Source: a phage
Sequence record: NC_105619.1
DNA: 48,980 bases
Direction: 5' to 3' (one strand)
The notes under the pieces: model-generated
The model's input: only the letters and a program-made list of their open reading frames with translations
The model's database searches: none
What the model was told of the DNA's origin: nothing
Program-made: the position numbers and the translations under genes
Shown here: positions 27,409-48,896 of the stretch, in pieces
Position numbering within the stretch: the stretch's first letter is position 1
Layout: each line of letters opens with the position of its first letter

Positions 27409-29433
27409 ATGGCCGTGACAATGAACATTAAAAAACAGATTGCATTACTTGGCGAGGACTACATAAAGCGAACTCAGGAGCGATTCACTGTAGGTGAGGT
27501 AGTTCCTTATCCGTATCAGGTTGTTGCTTACGCCGAGATCGCGAAGCGCTTGTCAAACTATGAGCATCCATTCTTCGTTAAAGCGTCTGTATCCGCAGGT
27601 AAGACAATAATATTTGCTATGGTGGCAAAGCAGTGTCAGAAAATGGGCTTAAAAATGCTTGTGCTGGCTCGCCAGGGTGAGATTGTCGATCAGGATAGTG
27701 AGGAGATTGACAACTTCGGGGTAACTAACTCCATATTCTCAGCGTCACTTGGAATCAAGTCCTGCTACTTCCCGATCGTGGTTGGCTCAGAGGGTACTGT
27801 TGCAAATGGCCTCGACAATGAGTTAGCTGATTTCGTACCGCATGTAATTGGGATCGACGAATGTCACCAGGTGGATTGGGAAGACCTTGCGCAAGCCATC
27901 GAGGGTAAGGAAACAATGGAACAAATGAGGGGCGAGAAAGGGAAAATTATCATGGACGGAGATATTCCCCTGATTGGTAATGATGGAAAGCCTTTGCTTG
28001 GAACTAAGCGCAGTCAGTACACGATCGTAATCATGGAAATGATGCGGCGCTGTAAAAAGGTTCACGGTCACGATCTCAGAATATTTGGTATGACTGGATC
28101 TGAATTTCGTGGCGTAGTTCCTATTCTGGTAGAGAATCCGAAAGCATTGGGATTCTGGCGTGAGCGAGTAACTGATATCGACACAAACTATCTGATTGAG
28201 TTCGGCTCTGTCGTTCCGACTATATTCGGATCAACAGACGGAGTTCATTACGATCTTGATAAGTTCAAGGCGTCGAGCGAGGACGGAGTGCAGGACTTTA
28301 CAGAGAAAGACATGAAGGCTATGGAAGATGAGATCCTTCATGATAAATCTCTGACTCAGCGAATCATGCAAATGGTCGCCAAAAAGGCAGAAGAACGCAA
28401 TGCGGTCCTGATTACATGTGCTGGTGTGCGCCACTGCAAAGAGGCAGCGGCAGCACTTCCTCCGGGAAGCACCTATGCAATTATTACTGGAGACACAGAC
28501 AACAAAGCGCGCAAGAAGATTCTTGACGATGTAAGGGCCGGAAAAATTAAATACACATTTCAGGTAATGGCGCTCACTACTGGCGTTAACGTTCCAAATT
28601 GGGATTTCAGTGTAATACTTCGCAAGATAGGATCTCTTACCTTGCTGATTCAGCTTTTGGGTAGGGGTATGCGACTTCTTAAATCCTGGCAGGTTGCTGA
28701 AGGAATGGTTAAGCAAGATCATCTGGTATGGGATTTTGCTGGTACGATGGACGAGTTGGGGCAGCTTTATTTTGACCCTATACTTGAGCAGGCTCAGTTT
28801 CAGAAGCGATTCGAGAACGGAAAAGACCCGAAAACGTGTCCTAAATGTGGTTGCGTAAATAGCTTCTATGCTCGCCGATGCGTTAACGTTATAGACGGTG
28901 AACGTTGCGATCATTTCTGGACTTCTCAGATTTGTGAGGACCAGGTTGACGAGCGCACCGGAAAAATCCTTGTTAAAGGATGCGGCGCAGAGAATGACGT
29001 TGTGGCCCGAGTCTGTCGTTGTTGTGATGTTTCGCTTGTCGATCCTAACCTGAAGTTATCCGGTAAGGCGTACACCAAGAATGACTGGTACGAGGTCAAG
29101 AATTTTGAGGTAACGCTAACCAAAAACCAGAAAGGCATAATATACAAATACACGCTAATTAACGACGAAGGTGATGAGTTCAAGGCGTATGAAAAATTCT
29201 TCCCTGAGTCAGACTCTAAGATTTGCGGTACGCTATGGAAAACGAAAGGTGTATTACCTCATGTGTCAGATCCTAAAATGCGCAGCTACTTTATCGGAAT
29301 GAAGAACGCCATCAAGATTTTGCAATATTCACATCATATTGCTCACCCGGTGCGCGTAACTCATCGTCGCAACCAGAAGAAAGAAGATATTATCTCACGA
29401 AAAGACTTTGGTATGGAGGATATCCCGGAATGA
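27409..29433 (+). CDS. SF2 DEAD/DEAH-box helicase with C-terminal Cys-rich zinc-finger region
   Basis: Walker A ..SAGKT.., DECH box ..IGIDECHQV.., C-terminal CPKCGC..C..C cluster. Confidence 0.8.
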   Translation: MAVTMNIKKQIALLGEDYIKRTQERFTVGEVVPYPYQVVAYAEIAKRLSNYEHPFFVKASVSAGKTIIFAMVAKQCQKMGLKMLVLARQGEIVDQDSEEIDNFGVTNSIFSASLGIKSCYFPIVVGSEGTVANGLDNELADFVPHVIGIDECHQVDWEDLAQAIEGKETMEQMRGEKGKIIMDGDIPLIGNDGKPLLGTKRSQYTIVIMEMMRRCKKVHGHDLRIFGMTGSEFRGVVPILVENPKALGFWRERVTDIDTNYLIEFGSVVPTIFGSTDGVHYDLDKFKASSEDGVQDFTEKDMKAMEDEILHDKSLTQRIMQMVAKKAEERNAVLITCAGVRHCKEAAAALPPGSTYAIITGDTDNKARKKILDDVRAGKIKYTFQVMALTTGVNVPNWDFSVILRKIGSLTLLIQLLGRGMRLLKSWQVAEGMVKQDHLVWDFAGTMDELGQLYFDPILEQAQFQKRFENGKDPKTCPKCGCVNSFYARRCVNVIDGERCDHFWTSQICEDQVDERTGKILVKGCGAENDVVARVCRCCDVSLVDPNLKLSGKAYTKNDWYEVKNFEVTLTKNQKGIIYKYTLINDEGDEFKAYEKFFPESDSKICGTLWKTKGVLPHVSDPKMRSYFIGMKNAIKILQYSHHIAHPVRVTHRRNQKKEDIISRKDFGMEDIPE

Positions 29434-29846
29434 TTACAGACAAAGGTGATTATTTAGAATTTTACGAGAGAGATCCAAGCGACACTCGAAAGGAGGACGC
29501 TCATCAGGTGGATTGTGTATCTTGGCTGAAATACAATTTTCCTCACCTTCTATTTTGGCACACTGTCAATGAAGGTGAAAAAACAATCACATCGGCGCTC
29601 AGGGATGAGCAGGCCGGATTACTTAAAGGCGTGTCAGACTTCGTTATCCTGATTGGTGTTAACTCACGATACCCGTTTGCAGCAATAGAACTAAAGCGGG
29701 TTAATAAGTCAGGCAAAGGAAAGGCGTCACCAGTCAGCGACAAGCAAAGGGAGTTTCTTCGAAAGGTCCGGGAGCGTGGCGGCTTCTCTGCCGTCGCATA
29801 CGGATTCGCGCAATTCAAGATCTCAATTCACGAAATGATGAAATAG
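29430..29846 (+). CDS. VRR-NUC domain nuclease
   Basis: ..DFVILIG..AAIELK..Q..F.. pattern (D-E-K nuclease core). Confidence 0.65.
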   Translation: MITDKGDYLEFYERDPSDTRKEDAHQVDCVSWLKYNFPHLLFWHTVNEGEKTITSALRDEQAGLLKGVSDFVILIGVNSRYPFAAIELKRVNKSGKGKASPVSDKQREFLRKVRERGGFSAVAYGFAQFKISIHEMMK

Positions 29847-38595: not shown

Positions 38596-38640
38596 ACTAT
38601 ACCAGCCATCTAGGGCGTGCGTTTAACAAAAAGTGCTATT
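38596..38640 (-). promoter_or_regulatory. early promoter module (minus strand)
   Basis: AATAGCACTTTTTGTTAAAC + 22 nt + TATAGT; arms GATGG/CCATC flank -10. Confidence 0.5.
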
Positions 38641-38825
38641 TAGAATTTTACATCTTCAACAAGCTCAACCATTTTGTACCCCAGGCGATAGGAGTCGCCG
38701 AGCAACAACAGACCCATAAATTCATCGTTGGTTATTGACTCCTTGCCAACAGTTTTAAGCTCTCCGTTGTGAATCACGGTATCGCCGATCTTGATTTCTG
38801 ATTTATGAACTAATTTTGTTTTCAT
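38640..38825 (-). CDS. hypothetical small protein
   Basis: 61-aa ORF. Confidence 0.4.
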   Translation of the reverse strand: MKTKLVHKSEIKIGDTVIHNGELKTVGKESITNDEFMGLLLLGDSYRLGYKMVELVEDVKF

Positions 38826-38840
38826 TTTCTGGCCTGTTAA

Positions 38841-39027
38841 TTAGAAGAAAGATACGTAATTTGCAACACCTTTAGCGTCGTCGTTAGGCATTGCCTTGAC
38901 AGCAAGATCATAACCAGCCTCGACCTTATGCTTTGCTGACTCTTCGTTGTGCCCCCCAAATAACCAGGATCTTAACTACGTTTTCTTTGTTCAGAACTTT
39001 AAGATCTTTAGTGATGCGACGTGCCAT
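38841..39027 (-). pseudogene. small gene interrupted by frame change at C6/G6 homopolymer (38952-38957)
   Basis: ATG with RBS GAGGAAAAAC; protein-like frame MARRITKDLKVLNKENVVKILVIWG.. continues in the other frame ..HNEESAKHKVEAGYDLAVKAMPNDDAKGVANYVSFF after the G6 run. Confidence 0.3.
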
Positions 39028-39060
39028 TTTGTTTTTCCTCAATCTCGTTTCGATGAGGTA

Positions 39061-39105
39061 ATTATGCCAAATCACACCGATCGAGTTTTAACAAAAAGTG
39101 CTATC
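39061..39105 (-). promoter_or_regulatory. early promoter module (minus strand)
   Basis: GATAGCACTTTTTGTTAAAAC + 22 nt + CATAAT; arms TCGAT/ATCGA flank -10. Confidence 0.5.
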
Positions 39106-39792
39106 CGCGATAGCTTTAAAAAATCCCCTGGGCGACAGAGATCGTATCAGCTTAGTTTTGGCAGACTTGCCGCCTAGCTTGCTGTGCTGTGCAGAGTACC
39201 CGTCAGGTAGGCTTACAGGTTTTCTCTCGGGCATGACAAAATCGTCAGAGGTCCAAAGGCAAGTTTTCTTCGGGTAAGCATCGCGCGGCGCAATATACAT
39301 CGGGAACCAGGGGTGTGAGTCATTCTCAGGAAGATAGCCGCCATACTCCCAGGGATTGAAAGTGTGATTTGGTTTTCTCCACACAGACGACAGGACGCTT
39401 ACCGGATTCTCAATGATGTAAGTCACGCCAAGGCTATCGCCAATGTTCGCGGCAATCCGGGCGGTGGCGGCAGCCTTCTCCTGGAATAACGGATCGCGTT
39501 CACGCTTTCTTGCGAAGTGAGCGGCACCACTAACAGCCAGGTCAGTGCACGACGGGAAGGCCATAATGAAATCCGGCTTGCCATACACGCCAGCGATAGC
39601 ATCACGCTCAAACGCTGCGTCAATGAACACGTTCACATACTCAATGTTCGGATGCTCCACTCGGGCATTGTACTTTGCATAATCCCCGTGATCGGCTCCG
39701 TCAAAGTTGAAGCACATCACCTTGTTACCTTGCTTAGCCAGTTCATGACCTGCAAGGCCGGAACCGTCGAATAGCGACCAGATTAATTTCAT
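39088..39792 (-). CDS. SAM-dependent DNA methyltransferase-like protein (C5-cytosine MTase-like motifs, compact)
   Basis: Motif-I-like SLFDGSGLAG, Cys-containing FPSCTD (cf. PCQ), ENP (cf. ENV); only 234 aa, no obvious target-recognition domain. Confidence 0.4.
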   Translation of the reverse strand: MKLIWSLFDGSGLAGHELAKQGNKVMCFNFDGADHGDYAKYNARVEHPNIEYVNVFIDAAFERDAIAGVYGKPDFIMAFPSCTDLAVSGAAHFARKRERDPLFQEKAAATARIAANIGDSLGVTYIIENPVSVLSSVWRKPNHTFNPWEYGGYLPENDSHPWFPMYIAPRDAYPKKTCLWTSDDFVMPERKPVSLPDGYSAQHSKLGGKSAKTKLIRSLSPRGFFKAIADSTFC

Positions 39793-39824
39793 TGCAAATA
39801 TCCTCTGATTGGTTGATGAGATGA

Positions 39825-39869
39825 ATCATACCCGATCGGCAGGGCTGATGTGTTGCAAAAAATGCTATT
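39825..39869 (-). promoter_or_regulatory. early promoter module (minus strand)
   Basis: AATAGCATTTTTTGCAACAC + 22 nt (palindrome CCGATCGG) + TATGAT. Confidence 0.5.
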
Positions 39870-40053
39870 CCAATAGTTGCTCATTATTCCACCAGCAATG
39901 GAATATCTGGAATAATTGCGATCCCGATTGATCTCGAATGATGAAACGTGATTATTGCATGGTGTGCAACAGTTGGTTGATTTGTTGCTGAGATTGCAAT
40001 GATTGTGAGAGGGAGGATTTAGTGTTACCCGGTTCGCCTGGTAGTCATCCCCA

Positions 40054-40075
40054 TTTTTAGCAAAAAGTGCTATCG
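40054..40075 (-). repeat. orphan copy of the box (GATAGCACTTTTTGCTAAAAA) without recognisable -10 at +22
   Basis: Read on minus strand within second AT-rich control region. Confidence 0.4.
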
Positions 40076-40399
40076 ATTACACTTTAACTTGTCACGATTG
40101 TAATATTTGTCTAGAATCGCCATTGTGACAAAATTACGCACTGTGACACCTCACAATATACATATAGATATATGTATATATATAATATATATAGTGTTTT
40201 TTTTATTTATATATATAGATAATTATATTGTAATGGGTGTGTATAGTTGTCTTACATTGTCTAGCGTACTGTTGGCATATTTCTATCTGCATGTTTATAT
40301 ATACAGTACTTTTTTGAGGGTCGTATATTTCTATATGGACTCTAGACAGCTAGACAAATGTTACACGGCTTAAAATCGGCTTGCAGGCATTGACAACTC

Positions 40400-40445
40400 T
40401 ACGTCGCGCTGTAACAATGGCAATTGTTGACACGTTATGACGCCA
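40400..40445 (+). promoter_or_regulatory. tandem sigma70-like promoters with perfect TTGACA -35 boxes upstream of first rightward early gene
   Basis: cattTTGACAactctacgtcgcgctgTAACAAT and aattgTTGACAcgttatgacgcc.. Confidence 0.4.
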
Positions 40446-40476
40446 TTTACACGCAAATAGACAAAGAGGATATATT

Positions 40477-40992
40477 ATGAGCAATACCAATCAGGAATTA
40501 AAAATCACCGACATGATTCGCCTAACCTGCGATGCGATGTACCGCGACAAAGGCATGAGCGAGTTCTCTTTCGTGGCTGATGATATGGCCCTGGAAGGAG
40601 CGCGCTTCTACTTCCGCAACCAGGATGTAAGCGATAGCGATCTTGAGTCTGCCGCTGCCGGATGGGTGGACCAGAACCAGGGCGAGGTAGAGAAGAGATT
40701 CAAGTCTGCTTTCATCACTCCGATCATTACCAGGCACTTTTGCAAGTACGGAAAGGTTGCAAAGGTGAAAGTGGGCCGGAATGACGCCGCAATTACGATG
40801 ATAACCGTTATCGTTACAGACGAAGAGTTTCCGGTGAAGAAGCGCCGCAGCCGGAAGAAAGTTAGCCTGGCCGACTGCCTGGATTCGTTCACGCCTGATA
40901 TTGATGATCTCGAAAAAGGTGATGTGACTGTAAGCACAGTGCGCGACCTGGTTCGCCAGATGAAAGCGCATATTGAGAAATGCGGACTGTAA
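40477..40992 (+). CDS. hypothetical early protein
   Basis: 171-aa ORF, RBS AAAGAGGA, first gene after control region. Confidence 0.5.
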   Translation: MSNTNQELKITDMIRLTCDAMYRDKGMSEFSFVADDMALEGARFYFRNQDVSDSDLESAAAGWVDQNQGEVEKRFKSAFITPIITRHFCKYGKVAKVKVGRNDAAITMITVIVTDEEFPVKKRRSRKKVSLADCLDSFTPDIDDLEKGDVTVSTVRDLVRQMKAHIEKCGL

Positions 40993-41004
40993 GGAGGGAT
41001 GGCT

Positions 41005-41265
41005 ATGAGCAAGATTAAGCATGACGCCCTGAAAGGTATTTTGATGCGACTGGAGCCAGGCGAGGCATTCCAGCTTAACCCCGAAACGTTCGGATTCGAA
41101 GGTTTCTATCGGCAAGGGTTGCAGATGAGTTCTCCAGCCGATGAGTTTGTCCGATATGTGCGAAAGCAGTTCGGCGTCGAAATGATTAGCCTGGGCAAAG
41201 TGCAAGGCATCCAGCTATTCATTTTCAAGCCAAATAAGATTCGTTGCTTCACTCTGATGAAATAG
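41005..41265 (+). CDS. hypothetical protein
   Basis: RBS AAGGAGGG; start at second ATG. Confidence 0.45.
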   Translation: MSKIKHDALKGILMRLEPGEAFQLNPETFGFEGFYRQGLQMSSPADEFVRYVRKQFGVEMISLGKVQGIQLFIFKPNKIRCFTLMK

Positions 41266-41305
41266 CACTTTTTGTTAAAACCGGATCGGGGTATCTTGAT
41301 ATAGT
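41261..41305 (+). promoter_or_regulatory. early promoter module
   Basis: AATAGCACTTTTTGTTAAAAC + 22 nt + TATAGT (TGa extended); arms GGGGTA/TACCCC flank -10. Confidence 0.55.
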
Positions 41306-41343
41306 TACCCCATCGAAACGAGATACCAATCAGAGGAATCACC

Positions 41344-41577
41344 ATGTCAATCGTCAAGAACCAGCAAGCTATCGATGCAACCCGCAATAAGAACCTTTGG
41401 GCTATATTCATTACGCGCGCAGGGCAACGCTACGCAGTGCGATCAGGTAACTGCATGGATAAGACCTATCGTGAAACTAACGGCAAATGGGAACGCTGCG
41501 AAAACTTGGCAAACTTCCTGGTCTGGAACGCAGACCTTCAGGGGTTTGATGATATCAGTACTTTAATTGAGGAATGA
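41344..41577 (+). CDS. hypothetical protein
   Basis: RBS context ACCAATCAGAGGAAT. Confidence 0.45.
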   Translation: MSIVKNQQAIDATRNKNLWAIFITRAGQRYAVRSGNCMDKTYRETNGKWERCENLANFLVWNADLQGFDDISTLIEE

Positions 41578-41810
41578 TAATTATGCCACGTTACAATAAA
41601 CAGACAAAACTAACCCGCGTTAACGGGTACATGATTCCGGCAAAATCCACTCACTACGCAATGGGTGCAAAGCACGGAATCTATTTCAAATGGAGAGGTC
41701 AATGGAACTTCGCGGCGATTGGAAACTTCTACATACGAATCACGGGAGAAAACTCGCAAGCGATCGTAGAGCAGTCAATCGGCGACAACAAGATCGAGGT
41801 ACTGAAATGA
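41574..41810 (+). CDS. hypothetical protein
   Basis: Overlapping start. Confidence 0.4.
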   Translation: MIIMPRYNKQTKLTRVNGYMIPAKSTHYAMGAKHGIYFKWRGQWNFAAIGNFYIRITGENSQAIVEQSIGDNKIEVLK

Positions 41811-41917
41811 ACTTCAATACAATAGCGTTATGGTCTGCCGCCTGGTTCTTCTGTATGGGTCACGTCATGGTTGGAGTCGTGGTTATGCTGCTACTGTGTG
41901 CGGGAGCGTTCGAATGA
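41807..41917 (+). CDS. hypothetical small membrane protein (36 aa)
   Basis: ATGA overlap with upstream stop; hydrophobic ..LWSAAWFFCMGHVMVGVVVMLLLCAGAF. Confidence 0.3.
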   Translation: MNFNTIALWSAAWFFCMGHVMVGVVVMLLLCAGAFE

Positions 41918-42087
41918 TTCGAATTCTGATTTGCATGATGGCGGCGGTCGCCCTGGCTATTCTGATAGTGTCAGGTTGCGGAGAGGCCAAAGAGCGATGC
42001 CACAAAACCGGGAACCAGGTTACTACGTTCGTGATGGTCGGCAACGTATTGCTACCAATCACATCAAATGAGATCACTTGCGAATAG
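41914..42087 (+). CDS. hypothetical small lipoprotein (57 aa)
   Basis: ATGA overlap; signal-like MIRILICMMAAVALAILIVSGC with lipobox VSGC. Confidence 0.35.
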   Translation: MIRILICMMAAVALAILIVSGCGEAKERCHKTGNQVTTFVMVGNVLLPITSNEITCE

Positions 42088-42096
42088 GATTTAAAA

Positions 42097-42288
42097 ATGG
42101 CTGATTTTATGCACCAAATGATTGCAGTATTCAAAGGTAGCGAAGATGAGGAAGTAAAAGAGTGCTTTACTGTCAACAAGTCTTATAGCGCTTCGCTAAC
42201 CAGCTTCGGTAACGTATCATTGCTTGATGATAATGGCGATCCCTGGGTATTCGATGAAGATACGGATTGCTTCGAAATTAAAGAATAG
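42097..42288 (+). CDS. hypothetical small acidic protein
   Basis: 63 aa, Asp/Glu-rich. Confidence 0.4.
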   Translation: MADFMHQMIAVFKGSEDEEVKECFTVNKSYSASLTSFGNVSLLDDNGDPWVFDEDTDCFEIKE

Positions 42289-42328
42289 CACTTTTTGTTA
42301 AAACGCGATCATGTGGTTGCGATATAGT
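42284..42328 (+). promoter_or_regulatory. early promoter module
   Basis: AATAGCACTTTTTGTTAAAAC + 22 nt + TATAGT; arms ATGTGGTT/AACCACAT flank -10. Confidence 0.55.
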
Positions 42329-42359
42329 AACCACATCGACAACGAACGAGGACGAGAAC

Positions 42360-42629
42360 ATGAAAATTAAATTACTTTGCACTGGCGGTTACAAAGGATT
42401 TACCCGCGACCTGGAATCGGACCCTATCGTGGTTGATGCAGTGAATCGCGATGATCGACTGGGCGGCTACCGCGTCAAGATCGAAGATCTGGTAAAAGCT
42501 GGTGTGTACGATCTGGATTATGGTTTGTCTGTCGGCCCGGTATTTGGTGCTGATATTAAAGCTGGCGATGAAACGATGTTCTTCTTCGATTGGGAAGTAC
42601 AGGCCAATCCTAAGCCGCGCAAGGTTTGA
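42360..42629 (+). CDS. hypothetical protein
   Basis: 89-aa ORF, RBS GAGGA. Confidence 0.45.
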   Translation: MKIKLLCTGGYKGFTRDLESDPIVVDAVNRDDRLGGYRVKIEDLVKAGVYDLDYGLSVGPVFGADIKAGDETMFFFDWEVQANPKPRKV

Positions 42630-42653
42630 CTACTCAACAATGGCGGCTACCAT

Positions 42654-42845
42654 ATGCGCCCAGGGTATGAGAATCGCACGTTCCCGGTTATCGTTGACTT
42701 TGAAAGAATTACTAGCAACCTGGCATACGTTAACGATGAGCAGTTGCGAGCCGTTGGATTTGTCAGCGGGATGAATAAAGAAGCACTATGCTTCGTTCGC
42801 GAGGAAATGCACGGTTACTATTCTGAGTGTGAGTTAGTTTACTAA
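42654..42845 (+). CDS. hypothetical protein
   Basis: 63-aa ORF. Confidence 0.35.
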   Translation: MRPGYENRTFPVIVDFERITSNLAYVNDEQLRAVGFVSGMNKEALCFVREEMHGYYSECELVY

Positions 42846-42886
42846 GCACGAATTGTCAAATGGTGATTCGTCCTGACTGGTACAAT
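42843..42886 (+). promoter_or_regulatory. early promoter module (variant box)
   Basis: TAAGCACGAATTGTCAAA + 22 nt + TACAAT; arms GGTGATT/AATCACC. Confidence 0.45.
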
Positions 42887-42916
42887 CACCACATCAACCA
42901 CTAAGAGGAAATCATT

Positions 42917-43423
42917 ATGTTGAAATTAGAAGATGTCAAATTCCCGATCAAATTTATCAGCATTGGATGTGGTGAAATTACGTTCACCAGTGAAGATAAG
43001 GGAATATGGGCCACTGATGAGGTGTCGCAGCTTAAGCTGGAATGGTTTATCGCCAGACATAACGAAGTGAATAAAGAAAATTCACCAAATAAGGACTACC
43101 ACTACATTATGAGTGACAATCAGAATGCTTACAGCTTGTATGATAGTTGGAAGATTGAAGGCTCAATATTCAAAGCTGCAAAGCCAGAAATCAAGCCATC
43201 GCTACAGTGCACTCAGATCGAGAACATGCCATTGAGCGCGACGCTAAAGGGTGTCCAACTTGATAGCGAATCCTGGATCGATATTACCGCCACGCCTAAA
43301 GCTATTGAGGTACACGATGATGTGGTGATTATCCTGTTGCATTACGGCAGCTTTAAGCACAAGACTGTATCAGGTGAAATCAGCATTAAGCGCGGAACGC
43401 TTGTACGCTATGAGGTGAAATAA
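42917..43423 (+). CDS. hypothetical protein
   Basis: 168-aa ORF, RBS AAGAGGAAA. Confidence 0.5.
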   Translation: MLKLEDVKFPIKFISIGCGEITFTSEDKGIWATDEVSQLKLEWFIARHNEVNKENSPNKDYHYIMSDNQNAYSLYDSWKIEGSIFKAAKPEIKPSLQCTQIENMPLSATLKGVQLDSESWIDITATPKAIEVHDDVVIILLHYGSFKHKTVSGEISIKRGTLVRYEVK

Positions 43424-43572
43424 TGGCTGCATGGGTTTTGATTATCTTAATGAGTACATGGCCGGATCACGTATACATGGAAAGTCAGCAATCATGCGAC
43501 AAGGCTCGGGAGGTAATTGCAGAGAATAAGCCGTTCGGATATGAAGTAAAAACGATGTGCGTTAAACGATAG
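43423..43572 (+). CDS. hypothetical small protein (49 aa), TAATG-coupled
   Basis: ATG overlaps upstream TAA; hydrophobic N-terminus. Confidence 0.3.
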   Translation: MAAWVLIILMSTWPDHVYMESQQSCDKAREVIAENKPFGYEVKTMCVKR

Positions 43573-43612
43573 CACGAATTGCTAAACCTTCCGCAAGGCC
43601 ATTTGATATAGT
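43568..43612 (+). promoter_or_regulatory. early promoter module
   Basis: GATAGCACGAATTGCTAAACC + 22 nt + TATAGT; arms AAGGCCA/TGGCCTT. Confidence 0.55.
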
Positions 43613-43652
43613 GGCCTTATTGAAGCATGGCAACCAATCAGAGGAATCAGCT

Positions 43653-43952
43653 ATGAAAATCAGATTAACCAGTAGCTACTTTAACCGTGAATCTTTCAAT
43701 CAGTACATAATCACAGATGGAATGAATCCAGATATCGTCCTTGATGTATCTCACAACATTGGCGACGTAATGTTTGTATCAGCAACTGAGCTTGCAAAGT
43801 ACGCAAAGCCAGAACATCGTCACCTGGCAGATCCGCAATTAAGCGATGGAAAGGTTACGGATTACGCATTCACCAAAGGTGAGTATGAAATCGTGAGATC
43901 TGGACCTTTCAGGTTCTGGAATAAACTTAAATCAGGGGAGTTATTCAAATGA
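43653..43952 (+). CDS. hypothetical protein
   Basis: Start at internal ATG after AACCAATCAGAGGAAT. Confidence 0.45.
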   Translation: MKIRLTSSYFNRESFNQYIITDGMNPDIVLDVSHNIGDVMFVSATELAKYAKPEHRHLADPQLSDGKVTDYAFTKGEYEIVRSGPFRFWNKLKSGELFK

Positions 43953-44236
43953 GAAAAACTCATAAGTTAAAAATTGCCCCGGTCCATTTCATCGGTGTAA
44001 TGAACGGCACAAAAACGGCAGAGTTCCGCATTAATGACCGCAACTTCCAGCCTGGCGATATCCTGGAGCTATGCGAGTTCGATCGGGATGAGTTTACCGG
44101 GTGGGAGGTACATGCCAGGGTATCCGATGTTACAGACGTGACGCCATACATCAATCGCGGGTATGACGAGCAAGAATGCGACTTCACGCAATACGTGATG
44201 TTATCAATAAAACCTTACAGAAAGGTTAGACCATGA
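43949..44236 (+). CDS. DUF3850-like (ASCH/PUA-like fold) protein
   Basis: Pattern KTHKLKIAPVHFIGVMNGTKTAEFRINDRNFQPGDILELCE resembles DUF3850 consensus (recalled, not searched). Confidence 0.45.
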   Translation: MRKTHKLKIAPVHFIGVMNGTKTAEFRINDRNFQPGDILELCEFDRDEFTGWEVHARVSDVTDVTPYINRGYDEQECDFTQYVMLSIKPYRKVRP

Positions 44237-44871
44237 AATTTGAGTGCGTATCAAGTAGCGGATCTGGTTTCAAGTGGGGTAAGGTCTACGAAGGCGCTCG
44301 CGTCAATGACAATAGATTCGTCATCACGGATGAGCGCGGTAGAAATGTTAACGTTGTCCGGCGTCACGAATACCAGGAAATATTCCTTCCGTATGGCGGT
44401 AGCTCAAAATATATCTTCCATCGAATCGTGGATGGTGTTAAATTTAAAGACGTAATCGAAGCAATCAACCAACTGCATAATAAAGAGGTCAAATTTATGA
44501 AATTCGAATGTATCAGTGATAACACCAAAAAATTTACCGTTGGCAAAATCTACGACGTGCCTACTGAGCACGCAAAGCACACTGTAGCACTGACCGACGA
44601 CACGGGCCGCCACCGCATTGCAACCGTAACGCACAACGGTGAAGGTCTTCGCTGGAATAGCGGCGGCACTAAGTTCGCAACGTTCGGAAAGAAGCGCAAG
44701 CGTACTTTCTGCGTCAATGGCAAGGTTACAGCGAACAAGATCCACAACGTCAAGCCGTCAGAAGTTGACCGTAAGCCAGCGACGAAGTTTGAAGAGAAGG
44801 AAGATTTGTCTGGTCTGGCTATCGCTCTTGTTCTCCTTGTTGCTTCGATTTCGCTGCTGCTCATCATGTAA
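44233..44871 (+). CDS. hypothetical tail-anchored membrane protein with internal tandem repeat
   Basis: Two ~90-aa repeats each starting MKFEC(V/I)S..(K/T)..GK(V/I)Y; C-terminal TM ..LSGLAIALVLLVASISLLLIM. Confidence 0.5.
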   Translation: MKFECVSSSGSGFKWGKVYEGARVNDNRFVITDERGRNVNVVRRHEYQEIFLPYGGSSKYIFHRIVDGVKFKDVIEAINQLHNKEVKFMKFECISDNTKKFTVGKIYDVPTEHAKHTVALTDDTGRHRIATVTHNGEGLRWNSGGTKFATFGKKRKRTFCVNGKVTANKIHNVKPSEVDRKPATKFEEKEDLSGLAIALVLLVASISLLLIM

Positions 44872-44878
44872 TGCTAAT

Positions 44879-44912
44879 GGGGAATCGGCTCTGAACGGTT
44901 CCCCTTTCTTTT
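44879..44912 (+). terminator. putative terminator
   Basis: GGGGAA..TTCCCC arms followed by TTTCTTTT. Confidence 0.45.
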
Positions 44913-45019
44913 GGAGAAAACACTATGCCAGACTTTTCTAACTGGAATAACGAGCCGCCATCATTTCAGGAGTTGCTATTTTGCCTCCTGATCCTAACAT
45001 TATCTCTTAAGGGTGTTTT

Positions 45020-45238
45020 ATGGCTACTATCATGACAGCAGAAGATGCAGCACGCGACGCAGTGGAAGGGATGCGCCCAAATAGCTCCAGAATCGCCCAC
45101 TACTACAAATCTGATGTGTCGGCAGTGCAATTGGTCCATGAAATTTTAAGGCTCCCACAAGTCGATTCAGCGCGCGTGGTGACGTGCTTAAAAAATTATT
45201 TTTGCATCACTATTAAAACGAATAGCACGAATTGCTAA
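45020..45238 (+). CDS. hypothetical protein (uncertain)
   Basis: 72-aa ORF whose 3' end runs into the promoter box. Confidence 0.25.
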   Translation: MATIMTAEDAARDAVEGMRPNSSRIAHYYKSDVSAVQLVHEILRLPQVDSARVVTCLKNYFCITIKTNSTNC

Positions 45239-45265
45239 AACCTATCAAGGGGAATGCGCTATGAT
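45221..45265 (+). promoter_or_regulatory. early promoter module
   Basis: AATAGCACGAATTGCTAAAAC + 22 nt + TATGAT; arms GGGGAAT/ATTCCCC. Confidence 0.55.
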
Positions 45266-45355
45266 TCCCCTACACCAACAAACGAGGAATCACTAATGAA
45301 ACACTTAATTTGCATTGAAACGCCTAACGATGAATACACTCTTCACGGAATATGA

Positions 45356-45742
45356 ATGTTCAAAGGTCACTACATGACAGCAAGCATTCATGATTCGCGT
45401 CTATGCGATGGCGATCTGGTGATTACATCAAAAGAAGTAAATCCGTACATTATGCAGAATCTTGGCGATAACGAATATATGGCCTACGGCTGCAACGCGG
45501 TGTACAAGCATATCAAGATCCGCAAGCGTGTCGTGCGTGCATTCAAGAAGATTGCAATGAAATACTGGAAGATGAGCAAGAAGGACGCCGGACGCTGGGC
45601 GCGCAATGTTGCTGACTCGTACTTCTATCGTAACGGTGAGTCATGCTACTTCCTGATCGATGAAATTATGGAAAACTACGGCGGCGACTTCGGTCAGTGT
45701 AACTTTGACGATTGGGCTGACTATGAGATCAGTTGTTGGTGA
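45356..45742 (+). CDS. hypothetical protein
   Basis: 128-aa ORF preceded by 19-codon mini-ORF with RBS GAGGAA (ATGAATG junction). Confidence 0.45.
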   Translation: MFKGHYMTASIHDSRLCDGDLVITSKEVNPYIMQNLGDNEYMAYGCNAVYKHIKIRKRVVRAFKKIAMKYWKMSKKDAGRWARNVADSYFYRNGESCYFLIDEIMENYGGDFGQCNFDDWADYEISCW

Positions 45743-45785
45743 TAGCACGAATTGCTAAAACTTGCTCAAGGGCATTTGTTAGAAT
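45741..45785 (+). promoter_or_regulatory. early promoter module
   Basis: GATAGCACGAATTGCTAAAAC + 22 nt + TAGAAT (TGt extended); arms AAGGGCA/TGCCCTT. Confidence 0.55.
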
Positions 45786-45825
45786 GCCCTTCGTTGAGTT
45801 AAGCAACCAATCAGAGGAATAAATC

Positions 45826-46437
45826 ATGGATAAAATCACAATTTGGGGCCAGACAATCAACCTGTTTCTCGGTACTCGCCGCGTGGCAATCTTTGACTTC
45901 GACGGAACACTGAGTGACGGCTCAAAACGTCTTCACCTGCTACCGACGAAAGATTTGCACTTGACGGAAAGCTGGTCTGAGTTCAACCGCGCGGCAATAT
46001 TTGACAATCCTATACGTAGTACGATTGATGTGATGAACTCTATGTTTGCCGCTGGGTATCATGTGATTATTTTAACCGGGCGAAGCGATGAGGTGCGTTA
46101 CGCATCTGAGTTATGGCTTAAGCATCACGGCGCGCGATATGACTACTTAGTCATGAGGCCGCATACCGACAACCGGAAAGACACGGTAATGAAAGAAGAG
46201 GCGGTGCGCGCGATCGGCATTGATAACATTCTGGCAGCCTGGGATGACTCACCGAAAATTATTCCATTATTCCGATCGCTTGGAATAACCACGTATGCCG
46301 TAGTTGACTATGGCGATAACGTTCACGATCATTTAAAATCTCACGGGGTGGATGGGGTTTGCAATCATGAACCATCTGAGCCGCTACCGCCATTTGGCGA
46401 TAAAATATGCATTAAGTGCAAGGAGTTATTGAAGTGA
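45826..46437 (+). CDS. HAD-superfamily phosphatase (polynucleotide-kinase 3'-phosphatase-like)
   Basis: Motif I ..VAIFDFDGTL.. (DxDGT), motif II ..IILTGR.., later ..AWDDS.. Confidence 0.6.
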   Translation: MDKITIWGQTINLFLGTRRVAIFDFDGTLSDGSKRLHLLPTKDLHLTESWSEFNRAAIFDNPIRSTIDVMNSMFAAGYHVIILTGRSDEVRYASELWLKHHGARYDYLVMRPHTDNRKDTVMKEEAVRAIGIDNILAAWDDSPKIIPLFRSLGITTYAVVDYGDNVHDHLKSHGVDGVCNHEPSEPLPPFGDKICIKCKELLK

Positions 46438-46545
46438 ACCTGTACGAATTTATTGCAGCACATCCGGTATTGACGGTTATCATCCTGTTAATCATCAATC
46501 ACACTATCATCAATGTGGCAAAATTATTTTTAGGGAGATACTAAC

Positions 46546-47118
46546 ATGAAAACAGCTATCATTTTAAACGGCGCACCTGGAGCGGGAAAAGACACTATCG
46601 GATGCATCCTGGCTGACACTTACGATCACGTAGCCTTGCGCAGCTTCAAAGCGCCAATGTTTGAGATTGCCCGGGCAATCCTTGGTGAAGCTAACTACGA
46701 GTATTTCATGTTCTTGTATGAGGACCGTCGATATAAAGAAGAGCCAGCATCCATCCTGAACGGTAAAAGCCCACGCCAGTTTATGATCTGGATTAGCGAG
46801 GAAGTCATCAAGCCGCAGTTCGGAAATCGATTCTTCGGTATGCGAGCGGAAAGCAAGGTGAAAGAGTCAAACTCCCTTTCGGTATTTACTGACGGTGGAT
46901 TCAAAGATGAGATCTTGCAAATGATTGAAGGCGATATCCAGGTCAAACTATGCCGCATACATCGCAACGGCTGCAACTTCGATAACGACAGTCGAGATTA
47001 TATCTACCTGGATGATATGATCGGTGTCAACGGTTATCAGGAATGTGACTTCTTCTCTGTCGAAGGTCATCCAGAAATTACCGCTCAGCACATAGCCGCC
47101 ACGTTCATCAATAAATAG
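46546..47118 (+). CDS. P-loop nucleotide/nucleoside-monophosphate kinase-like protein
   Basis: Walker A ..LNGAPGAGKDT.. at N-terminus, as in small phage dNMP/polynucleotide kinases. Confidence 0.55.
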   Translation: MKTAIILNGAPGAGKDTIGCILADTYDHVALRSFKAPMFEIARAILGEANYEYFMFLYEDRRYKEEPASILNGKSPRQFMIWISEEVIKPQFGNRFFGMRAESKVKESNSLSVFTDGGFKDEILQMIEGDIQVKLCRIHRNGCNFDNDSRDYIYLDDMIGVNGYQECDFFSVEGHPEITAQHIAATFINK

Positions 47119-47158
47119 CACGAATTGCTAAAACGTCGATGTGGTGATTTGATATAGT
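47114..47158 (+). promoter_or_regulatory. early promoter module
   Basis: AATAGCACGAATTGCTAAAAC + 22 nt + TATAGT; arms GTCGATG/CATCGAC. Confidence 0.55.
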
Positions 47159-47191
47159 TACCTCATCGACAACCAAGAGAGACAAATCGAA

Positions 47192-47401
47192 ATGATGGTA
47201 TCAACTGATAAGTTTTTTACTTGCACTAAAACTTCTGAAGTATTCGAACTGGTTCATACTGATAATGGTGATTTCATGCATGACGGTTGCTACGTTTTTA
47301 TCGAAGTGAAAGAAAGCGACTATGACGACGGAGTTTATTACAACCCGGCAGTTAACACTCAGTTTTTTACCCCGATCGAGGAAGATGGAGAAGAGGCATG
47401 A
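47192..47401 (+). CDS. hypothetical small acidic protein
   Basis: 69 aa, ~16 Asp/Glu, few basic residues. Confidence 0.45.
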   Translation: MMVSTDKFFTCTKTSEVFELVHTDNGDFMHDGCYVFIEVKESDYDDGVYYNPAVNTQFFTPIEEDGEEA

Positions 47402-47742
47402 TTACGATTAACCTGTCAGAGAAGCAAGCTCGTGAAATCCTGGACACGATCGGCGACCAGTTACACATCAAAGGCGCTACCGCCGAACTTCTTAACCAGA
47501 TCGAAAGGCAGCTCACTCCGGTGTCAACGAATCAATCTGAGTTCGCAGCATGGAAGAGTGAGCGCATCTTGCCAAATATCATCAAGGCATGGAAGCGCAA
47601 GCATAAAAAAGAAATCAACGTTGAGGATTTATTTACCGATGAATTAAGTCCTTCAAAGGTTTCTCAATATCAGTTGCGATACATGGAATCAGTTTGCAAT
47701 CAGGTTTTAGGTGTTAATTTTTCATTTGGTGGAGGTAAATGA
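47398..47742 (+). CDS. hypothetical protein
   Basis: Overlapping start. Confidence 0.45.
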   Translation: MITINLSEKQAREILDTIGDQLHIKGATAELLNQIERQLTPVSTNQSEFAAWKSERILPNIIKAWKRKHKKEINVEDLFTDELSPSKVSQYQLRYMESVCNQVLGVNFSFGGGK

Positions 47743-47972
47743 TGTTCGGTTTAAGTGAAGCGGAATGGAACGTGGTAAAGCGAGCGGCGAAGGAATTAAA
47801 TAAATTCGTCAGTGGCATGAAGAAAGAAGATCGGAAAAACGACAAGATCATGATTTACGTTATTTCTACTCACCATAAAAAGGTCGAATTACTCATCGAT
47901 CGCTACAAATTTGTCTGGACTGCCGGGTATATTGCCGGGCGCGTAGGTAACAAAGAAGGGGATTACGAATAA
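47739..47972 (+). CDS. hypothetical protein
   Basis: Overlapping start. Confidence 0.45.
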   Translation: MMFGLSEAEWNVVKRAAKELNKFVSGMKKEDRKNDKIMIYVISTHHKKVELLIDRYKFVWTAGYIAGRVGNKEGDYE

Positions 47973-48175
47973 TGGCTAATTTGCCGAGGAAAGGCGATCA
48001 GGTTCGATGCGTAACGTCACGCAATGGCGATGCTTTCTCTGCTGGTTGCTCTTACGATGTGGAAAAGGTTAGTAAAGCAAAGAGACTCGTATATGTGTAC
48101 GGCGACGATGGAAACTTGCATGAGATTGATTACCCGCAGGATATGACTAAGGGTCAATTTGAAATTAATGATTGA
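47972..48175 (+). CDS. hypothetical protein
   Basis: Overlapping start (TAATG). Confidence 0.45.
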   Translation: MANLPRKGDQVRCVTSRNGDAFSAGCSYDVEKVSKAKRLVYVYGDDGNLHEIDYPQDMTKGQFEIND

Positions 48176-48339
48176 CCTACGTCCCTGAGCGGTGATAGTA
48201 TTAATCCCGTAGACATACGAGGCGCAATGAGTCGCAACGCGTGAGACGATTCTCACCATTCCAGCTAACAAGCTCGGTTGCATAGTGGTTAAGCAACGCC
48301 GCAGACCCGTAAGCGGCAACAATTCAAGAGGATTGCATA
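48176..48339 (+). ncRNA. candidate structured non-coding region / leader
   Basis: 164 nt without ORF; TTGACC-N18-TAGTAT at its 5' edge; hairpins GAGA-cgat-TCTC, GTTGC-N11-GCAAC, GCCGC-N10-GCGGC. Confidence 0.25.
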
Positions 48340-48501
48340 ATGCAAAACACCAAAGATGAATCAGTCAAAATTGAAATTAAAGTAACTCGCAACGGTGAAA
48401 CCACTCGTTATAAAAAACGATTAAATCCTGGCGAGGCTGTTATTGGTCGCATTGCTGGCGTTATGATTAAGGCGCAGGAAGATGAAGCGATTCAAAGTTA
48501 A
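48340..48501 (+). CDS. hypothetical small protein (53 aa)
   Basis: RBS AAGAGG; below track cutoff. Confidence 0.35.
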   Translation: MQNTKDESVKIEIKVTRNGETTRYKKRLNPGEAVIGRIAGVMIKAQEDEAIQS

Positions 48502-48517
48502 ATTAATTATTCGAAAG

Positions 48518-48667
48518 ATGGGAATGTTTTGCCAGTCGTGCAAGCAATCTTTCGAAACTGAATTATCAGCAACCAGTCAGGATGAAGCCATCACGAAAGC
48601 AAAAAAACTTTCCGGCGCTAACCTTGACACTCACAAAATAAATATTGAATTAATCAAGGAGATTTAA
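48518..48667 (+). CDS. hypothetical small Cys-containing protein
   Basis: Track ORF 48482..48667 trimmed to internal ATG to avoid overlap; start uncertain. Confidence 0.3.
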   Translation: MGMFCQSCKQSFETELSATSQDEAITKAKKLSGANLDTHKINIELIKEI

Positions 48668-48668
48668 C

Positions 48669-48896
48669 ATGACAATTTTTTTATTGATTATCGCTGGTGT
48701 CATTATTTTTGGTGCTGGTTTGTTTGCTGGCTTCGCACTTGTGGCGGCAGCAATTGCGAAGGACGCGAAGGATAAAACTGGTGTATGGCTGACCTACTCA
48801 CCTAAGAAGGACCAATGGGAAATGACTGGCGACCTTGCTCACTGCTACTCTAAAGCGCAGACTCACCCTAAAGGCATTAAACGACGATTATCGTGA
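48669..48896 (+). CDS. hypothetical membrane protein
   Basis: RBS AAGGAG; N-terminal TM ..IFLLIIAGVIIFGAGLFAGFALVAAAI.. Confidence 0.5.
   Translation: MTIFLLIIAGVIIFGAGLFAGFALVAAAIAKDAKDKTGVWLTYSPKKDQWEMTGDLAHCYSKAQTHPKGIKRRLS

Follow-up and report, generated by a model that had tools for sequence, protein, structure and literature searches.

Does a protein of only 234 residues in a T1-like coliphage methylate cytosine in DNA, or has a methyltransferase (MTase) fold been put to some other use? The window considered here, by which we mean the whole stretch of 48,980 nucleotides that was analysed (NC_105619.1), represents a T1-like coliphage (Tunavirus, Drexlerviridae) and shares 94% identity over 24 kb with Tunavirus genomes, among them that of Shigella phage pSf-2. 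An earlier reading of the letters alone (the sequence-only reading) had noticed in it, besides a Dam gene, a compact protein resembling cytosine-5 DNA methyltransferases (C5-MTases), and had proposed either a second DNA-modification activity or an MTase-fold protein repurposed for base hypermodification or as a decoy. The former proposal is supported by the predicted fold, by family membership and by experiments on a 56%-identical ortholog. We posit that the gene, referred to here as dcm, encodes an orphan AdoMet-dependent DNA cytosine-5 methyltransferase of a compact phage Dcm-like family, and we put the probability of this explanation as a whole at about 0.8. What the present analysis itself established is the reality of the ORF, the family and fold to which its product belongs, the retention of the catalytic residues and the purifying selection; 5mC formation and retron triggering are taken from the literature on an ortholog.

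A compact methyltransferase family in phages

The dcm ORF lies on the minus strand, as the sequence-only reading had placed it, and begins with ATG behind a ribosome-binding site (Table 1); the N-terminus of its product reads MKLIWSLFDGSG. A match to PHROG 757 'DNA methyltransferase' (E = 2.2e-81, residues 1–231), 3564 homologs at E ≤ 1e-3 and dN/dS values of 0.04–0.14 against intact relatives confirm that dcm is a real gene, far beyond chance. Relatives were found in 1512 of 50,697 phage records, mostly from phages of Escherichia, Klebsiella, Salmonella and Shigella, with some from phages of Campylobacter, Vibrio and Arthrobacter. An exhaustive profile search returned 1802 clusters at 50% identity, nearly all of which are 205–260 aa long, indicating that short length is the norm of a discrete family rather than the outcome of truncation. 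The compactness remarked on earlier is thus a family trait, the median being 232 aa compared with 327 aa for M.HhaI (sequence checked against 10mh_A) and 324 positions for the PF00145 model. The accompanying remark that the protein is too short for a normal target-recognition domain (TRD) holds as a description but carries no weight against activity, as the whole validated family is equally short. To our knowledge, this is about the smallest C5-MTase architecture, and it bears on the question of how a target site can be read when hardly any TRD is present.

The family is a known and experimentally supported one, already recognised from annotation and from experiments on an ortholog, and it matters both because it is very widespread and because it is known to set off retron Ec86 (Eco1). 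Public names for its members are inconsistent, ranging over 'hypothetical protein', 'DNA methylase' and 'Dcm-like C5 cytosine methyltransferase'. The proper annotation is Dcm-like DNA cytosine-5 methyltransferase, rather than hypothetical protein as in many records. The Dam gene reported by the sequence-only reading was recovered at the same position with a score of 226.6 bits for PF05869 (cutoff 28.1, E = 1.9e-67). A VRR-NUC nuclease ORF (29430–29846, plus strand; PF08774, E = 8e-14) is located directly upstream of it.

Table 1 Positions of dcm, its motifs and associated regions in the window
Feature	Position	Strand	Basis
CDS, compact Dcm-like DNA cytosine-5 methyltransferase, PHROG 757 family, 234 aa	39088..39792	-	homology, fold
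Ribosome-binding site AGAGGA, 8 nt before the dcm ATG	39801..39806	-	read from sequence
Motif I F8-D-G10-S-G12, presumed AdoMet-binding loop after strand 1	39757..39771	-	sequence, predicted fold
Motif IV F79-P80-S81-C82-T83-D84	39541..39558	-	alignment; C82 named as the catalytic residue of K42 Dcm
Cys82 codon, catalytic Cys by the K42 ortholog	39547-39549	-	
S81 codon TCG, private P81S substitution	39550-39552	-	
Motif VI E128-N129-P130, ENV equivalent, ENP variant	39403..39411	-	conservation; E128 among the residues changed in K42 Dcm-mut
K175-K176, proposed substrate-binding residues	39265..39270	-	K42 ortholog, alignment
Dam-type N6-adenine DNA methyltransferase, second MTase of the genome	29914..30627	+	PF05869
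Accessory cassette, dcm and two small ORFs of unknown function	38604..39811		comparison with T1
Divergent intergenic region, AT-rich (36% GC), with promoter-like sites in either strand	39793..40476		
Early rightward genes, specific CCWGG excess, densest at 40.5-44.4 kb	40477..48896	+	synonymous-codon shuffling

Motifs and predicted fold

All three motifs singled out by the sequence-only reading are where it had put them, with SLFDGSGLAG at residues 6–15, FPSCTD with its Cys at 79–84 and ENP at 128–130. The FxGxG pattern expected of motif I is present as F8-D-G10-S-G12 and is looser in the wider family. Across 110 diverse members C82 is conserved in 97%, and motif VI is similarly constrained (E128 99%, N129 94%, P130 98%); the best-conserved positions also include P80, G89, K96, R139, P147, D171, Y173, K175, T177, W180, P188, R217 and G223. 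The segment Y173-P-K175-K176-T-C runs into the last strand (residues 177–181), so placed that K175 and K176 directly precede it, and these two lysines are possibly the equivalent of motif VIII. About 40 residues of lower model confidence separate the last strand from a conserved C-terminal helix, IRSL(T/S)PRGF. By our own reading of its sequence, M.HhaI separates motif VIII from motif IX by about 105 residues; the shorter interval here leaves no room for a classical TRD or small domain.

Two further observations concern the coding sequence. Residue 29, at the end of strand 2, occupies a position that in class I MTases usually holds an acidic AdoMet-ribose-binding residue; it is Asp in 83% of the wider family and Asn in the enterobacterial-phage subclade, including the active K42 type. 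Two terminator-like hairpins (39100–39141, minus strand) fall within the final 50 nt of the dcm CDS, and the second of them enters the stop codon; 1.7 such hairpins are expected by chance, and their significance is doubtful.

The predicted fold is that of a class I AdoMet-MTase with C5-MTase topology, so that structure prediction, proposed earlier as a check, places the protein inside the MTase superfamily. The window protein matched no Pfam or NCBIfam model, even at E ≤ 10, and no PDB chain was matched by the protein or by a 30-sequence profile. Three homologs of about 60% identity do pass PF00145 (24.7–28.5 bits, gathering threshold 22), covering model positions 4–94 only, i.e. motifs I–IV, and the window protein itself falls below that threshold. 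When the family was aligned to E. coli Dcm with hhalign the probability was 0.8% and only motif IV aligned, and motif IV was again the only part aligned between a 110-sequence HMM and either M.HhaI or Dcm. Since sequence and profile searches fail, the tie to classical C5-MTases rests on the fold, a few homologs and the literature.

An active ortholog that triggers retron Ec86

The closest experimental evidence concerns phage KarlJaspers (Bas06), whose 711-bp gene, annotated as Dcm-like, encodes a protein 56% identical to the window protein over its full length (BLASTP E = 1e-87). A study of retron Ec86 (Eco1) used K42, a KarlJaspers strain within the Drexlerviridae; all four of the escapers isolated carried a disrupted copy of this 711-bp dcm, and expression of K42 Dcm was toxic only with Ec86 present (bioRxiv 10.1101/2023.08.16.553469, cited later as Cell Rep 2024 43:114857). 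The same study reported that K42 Dcm expression raises 5mC in the msDNA, as measured by LC-MS, whereas a C82A/E128A/K175A/K176A mutant does not, and that mutating CCTGG in the msDNA stem-loop abolishes Ec86 defence. C82, E128, K175 and K176 are all present in the window protein at identical numbering. Judging from host Dcm and from the msDNA mutagenesis, the target of the family is probably CCWGG. In dcm+ MG1655 with an empty vector msDNA 5mC was low despite the CCTGG site in the msDNA (bioRxiv 10.1101/2023.08.16.553469), which fits poorly with a plain CCWGG specificity like that of host Dcm; the phage and host enzymes may differ in specificity, in access or in level (dose).

The dcm cassette and its decay in relatives

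A leftward unit of the window opens with dcm, which is followed by two small ORFs of 61 aa (PHROG 3623) and 49 aa (PHROG 7717). Phage T1 has no equivalent of the segment holding these three genes, and its flanks join directly (loci L038 and L039), which identifies the dcm region as an accessory cassette. The cassette borders the divergent promoter region and lies near the equivalent of the T1 record start and terminal repeat.

Several of the 14 close relatives carry independently damaged copies of dcm. These comprise a nonsense mutation at codon 62 in L010 (matched to DELF2), different 1-bp deletions in L015 (matched to IME18) and L027 (matched to ADB-2), a decayed copy in L028, a short C-terminal truncation at residue 229 in L014 and a P80H substitution in L012. 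The host listed for IME18 is BL21(DE3), which natively carries Ec86 (bioRxiv 10.1101/2023.08.16.553469); the frameshifted dcm of the IME18-matched locus is consistent with triggering of the retron by Dcm but proves nothing. Taken together, losses in relatives and purifying selection on intact copies fit a gene that is useful but conditionally costly.

Proposed function and alternative explanations

For the window protein we infer the activity of its P81S allele, its target sequence and an anti-restriction role along the following lines. As the first gene, dcm would be transcribed leftward from the divergent promoter region. Cys82 of the enzyme would attack C6 of a flipped-out cytosine, Glu128 of ENP would contact the base, and Lys175, Lys176 and the segment of about 40 residues (182–216) may replace the usual large TRD; C5 would then receive a methyl group. 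With the K42/KarlJaspers ortholog as a guide, CCWGG or a site closely resembling it is the probable target. The phage would probably profit in that its replicating DNA is shielded from 5mC-sensitive restriction of the EcoRII type, especially in dcm-negative hosts. The cost known from the ortholog, which may apply here as well, is that methylated msDNA of retron Ec86/Eco1 sets off abortive infection. In Drexlerviridae, according to the BASEL authors, restriction resistance does not follow in any simple way from the presence of MTase genes. Our literature search found no 5mC methylome of a T1-like virion, and the BF23/T5 paper covers other phages.

Repurposing, the second proposal of the sequence-only reading, finds no support. 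A transfer other than that of methyl, e.g. of carboxymethyl from Cx-SAM as in CmoX, which would leave a handle for hypermodification, is scarcely credible given that the K42 ortholog raises 5mC, that the protein lacks SPPC and that a scan of ORFs in the window turned up neither a CmoA nor an amide-ligase partner. It is also very improbable that the protein is a non-catalytic MTase-fold decoy or anti-defence factor, binding DNA or AdoMet, or that it is an RNA m5C methyltransferase acting on tRNA like Dnmt2. Its catalytic residues are conserved and under strong purifying selection, and the active-site mutant of the ortholog loses function.

A different question is whether the particular allele in the window is fully active. 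The sequence-only reading had noted a Cys in FPSCTD where C5-MTases have PCQ; the string and its Cys are indeed there, but the Ser proves to be peculiar to this genome and the close relatives have PPC. More specifically, AFPPCTD occurs in 101 of 120 homologs and PSC in none of them, and all 14 close Tunavirus copies (13 IMG/VR loci and LeonhardEuler) have Pro at position 81, encoded by CCG, CCA or CCT compared with TCG in the window. On the strength of these alignments, P81S is private to this genome and not a family trait. In M.EcoRII, replacement of Pro by Ser or Ala reportedly lowered activity without abolishing it. We consider it unlikely that the allele is hypomorphic or inactive, P81S weakening catalysis on a path of decay or escape such as that seen in relatives, under pressure from, for example, retron Ec86-type sensors or toxicity of the enzyme. 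This would agree with the restriction of S81 to this genome, with the independent dcm lesions in close relatives, with the existence of T1 without the cassette and with the attention given to the ProCys proline of M.EcoRII (Kossykh et al. 1995). Against it, position 81 varies among the 110 diverse members (P 75%, V 9%, E 9%, S 2%), flanked by the conserved P80 and C82, suggesting that the constrained core is P-x-C and that Ser may be tolerated; furthermore, the ORF is otherwise intact and a lone change could be a sequencing error. A view of P81S as probably inactivating was dropped once the diverse alignment had shown position 81 to be variable.

CCWGG sites in the early genes

The proposed target has an uneven distribution in the window. 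Genome-wide CCWGG is not depleted (93 observed, 103 expected), and the structural and middle genes show no excess; adjoining dcm, nine sites fall within 40477–41205 compared with 1.1 expected. In an exploratory comparison against a null of synonymous-codon shuffling, which ignores codon-pair bias, and with T1 as the sole dcm-less genome, CCWGG ranked first of 32 palindromic pentamers in the early rightward genes plus dcm of the window (34 sites versus 16.0 ± 2.8, z = 6.4) and in the early rightward genes of the dcm-carrying phages LeonhardEuler (25 versus 11.3 expected, z = 6.0) and KarlJaspers (22 versus 10.6 expected, z = 5.3), and ranked second of 32 in T1 (20 versus 13.0 expected, z = 2.6; relatives represented by loci L001, L003 and L039).

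With a first-order Markov null, CCWGG ranks first in 13 of the 17 loci whose homolog is 56–95% identical to the window protein. In L016, which has a 63% identical homolog, the outlying site is CCSGG (z = 6.0) and not CCWGG. Under the same null, seven IMG/VR loci with homologs of 46–49% identity (L029–L035) have zero or one CCWGG site each where 4–10 are expected, ranking it 28th–32nd of 32. This points to avoidance of restriction in those phages and possibly to an MTase of another specificity. Bias from Vsr/VSP repair was rejected as the source of the excess: CTWGG and CCWAG are depleted in all regions, the structural genes without an excess among them, and such a bias therefore fails to explain the regional pattern. 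The excess of CCWGG in early genes suggests, independently of the protein, that this site matters to these phages.

One could go further and suppose that Dcm is functionally coupled to the CCWGG-dense early region, methylation of the clustered sites in the pac-proximal, first-expressed genes serving for timing, self-marking or regulation, although we regard this as quite improbable. Dam sites act in the pac site of phage P1, which provides an analogy. If such coupling exists, anti-restriction would not be the sole role of the enzyme, or would be no role at all. The true specificity may then differ from that of host Dcm, given that Ec86 is not set off in dcm+ hosts by their own enzyme, and P81S together with the repeated gene losses would reflect a trade-off with retron-type sensors.

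Other short sites also depart from expectation in the window as a whole. GGCC is rare (69 sites versus 114 Markov-expected and 131 by base composition) and GGWCC is low (23 versus 71 by base composition); CCSGG is over-represented (78 versus 49), and GATC occurs 250 times versus 305 Markov-expected.

Comparison with known systems

Relative to the classical C5-MTases of PF00145 (E. coli Dcm/M.EcoRII and M.HhaI), the window protein is about 90–240 residues shorter and has Lys-Lys where QxRxR would be expected. Its C-terminal 'IRSLTPRGFA' (also given as 'IRSLSPRGFF') resembles classical motif IX, a GN motif X cannot be made out separately, and the block may correspond to motif IX, motif X or both. 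The best structural neighbours of the predicted fold are the catalytic domains of DNMT3A and DNMT3B, the C5-MTases with the smallest known TRD. Identity to these is 13–16%, which provides no evidence of a specific evolutionary link, and DNMT3 differs in acting as an oligomer on CpG. A further structural neighbour is CmoX, a phage DNA cytosine C5-carboxymethyltransferase (PDB 8yf3) whose hallmarks are SPPC, an Arg in place of the motif X Asn (the HhaI-N304 position) and linkage to cmoA and cmoY (PMC12783734). Where CmoX has SPPC, the window protein has FPSC and its family FPPC.

The systems that resemble the window most closely are those of other Drexlerviridae. KarlJaspers belongs to the Tempevirinae and the window to the Tunavirinae, and both encode a Dcm of the compact family (236 and 234 aa, respectively), pair it with a Dam-type MTase (the pair is annotated in KarlJaspers too) and carry dcm in a leftward early/middle unit; the window differs in having dcm at the head of its unit and in the P81S change. 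Closer still is LeonhardEuler (Bas13), whose 'Dcm-like C5 cytosine methyltransferase' has 97.9% protein identity to the product of dcm and shares its position and neighbours. LeonhardEuler and the other Tunavirus copies carry the canonical PPC, unlike the PSC of the window.
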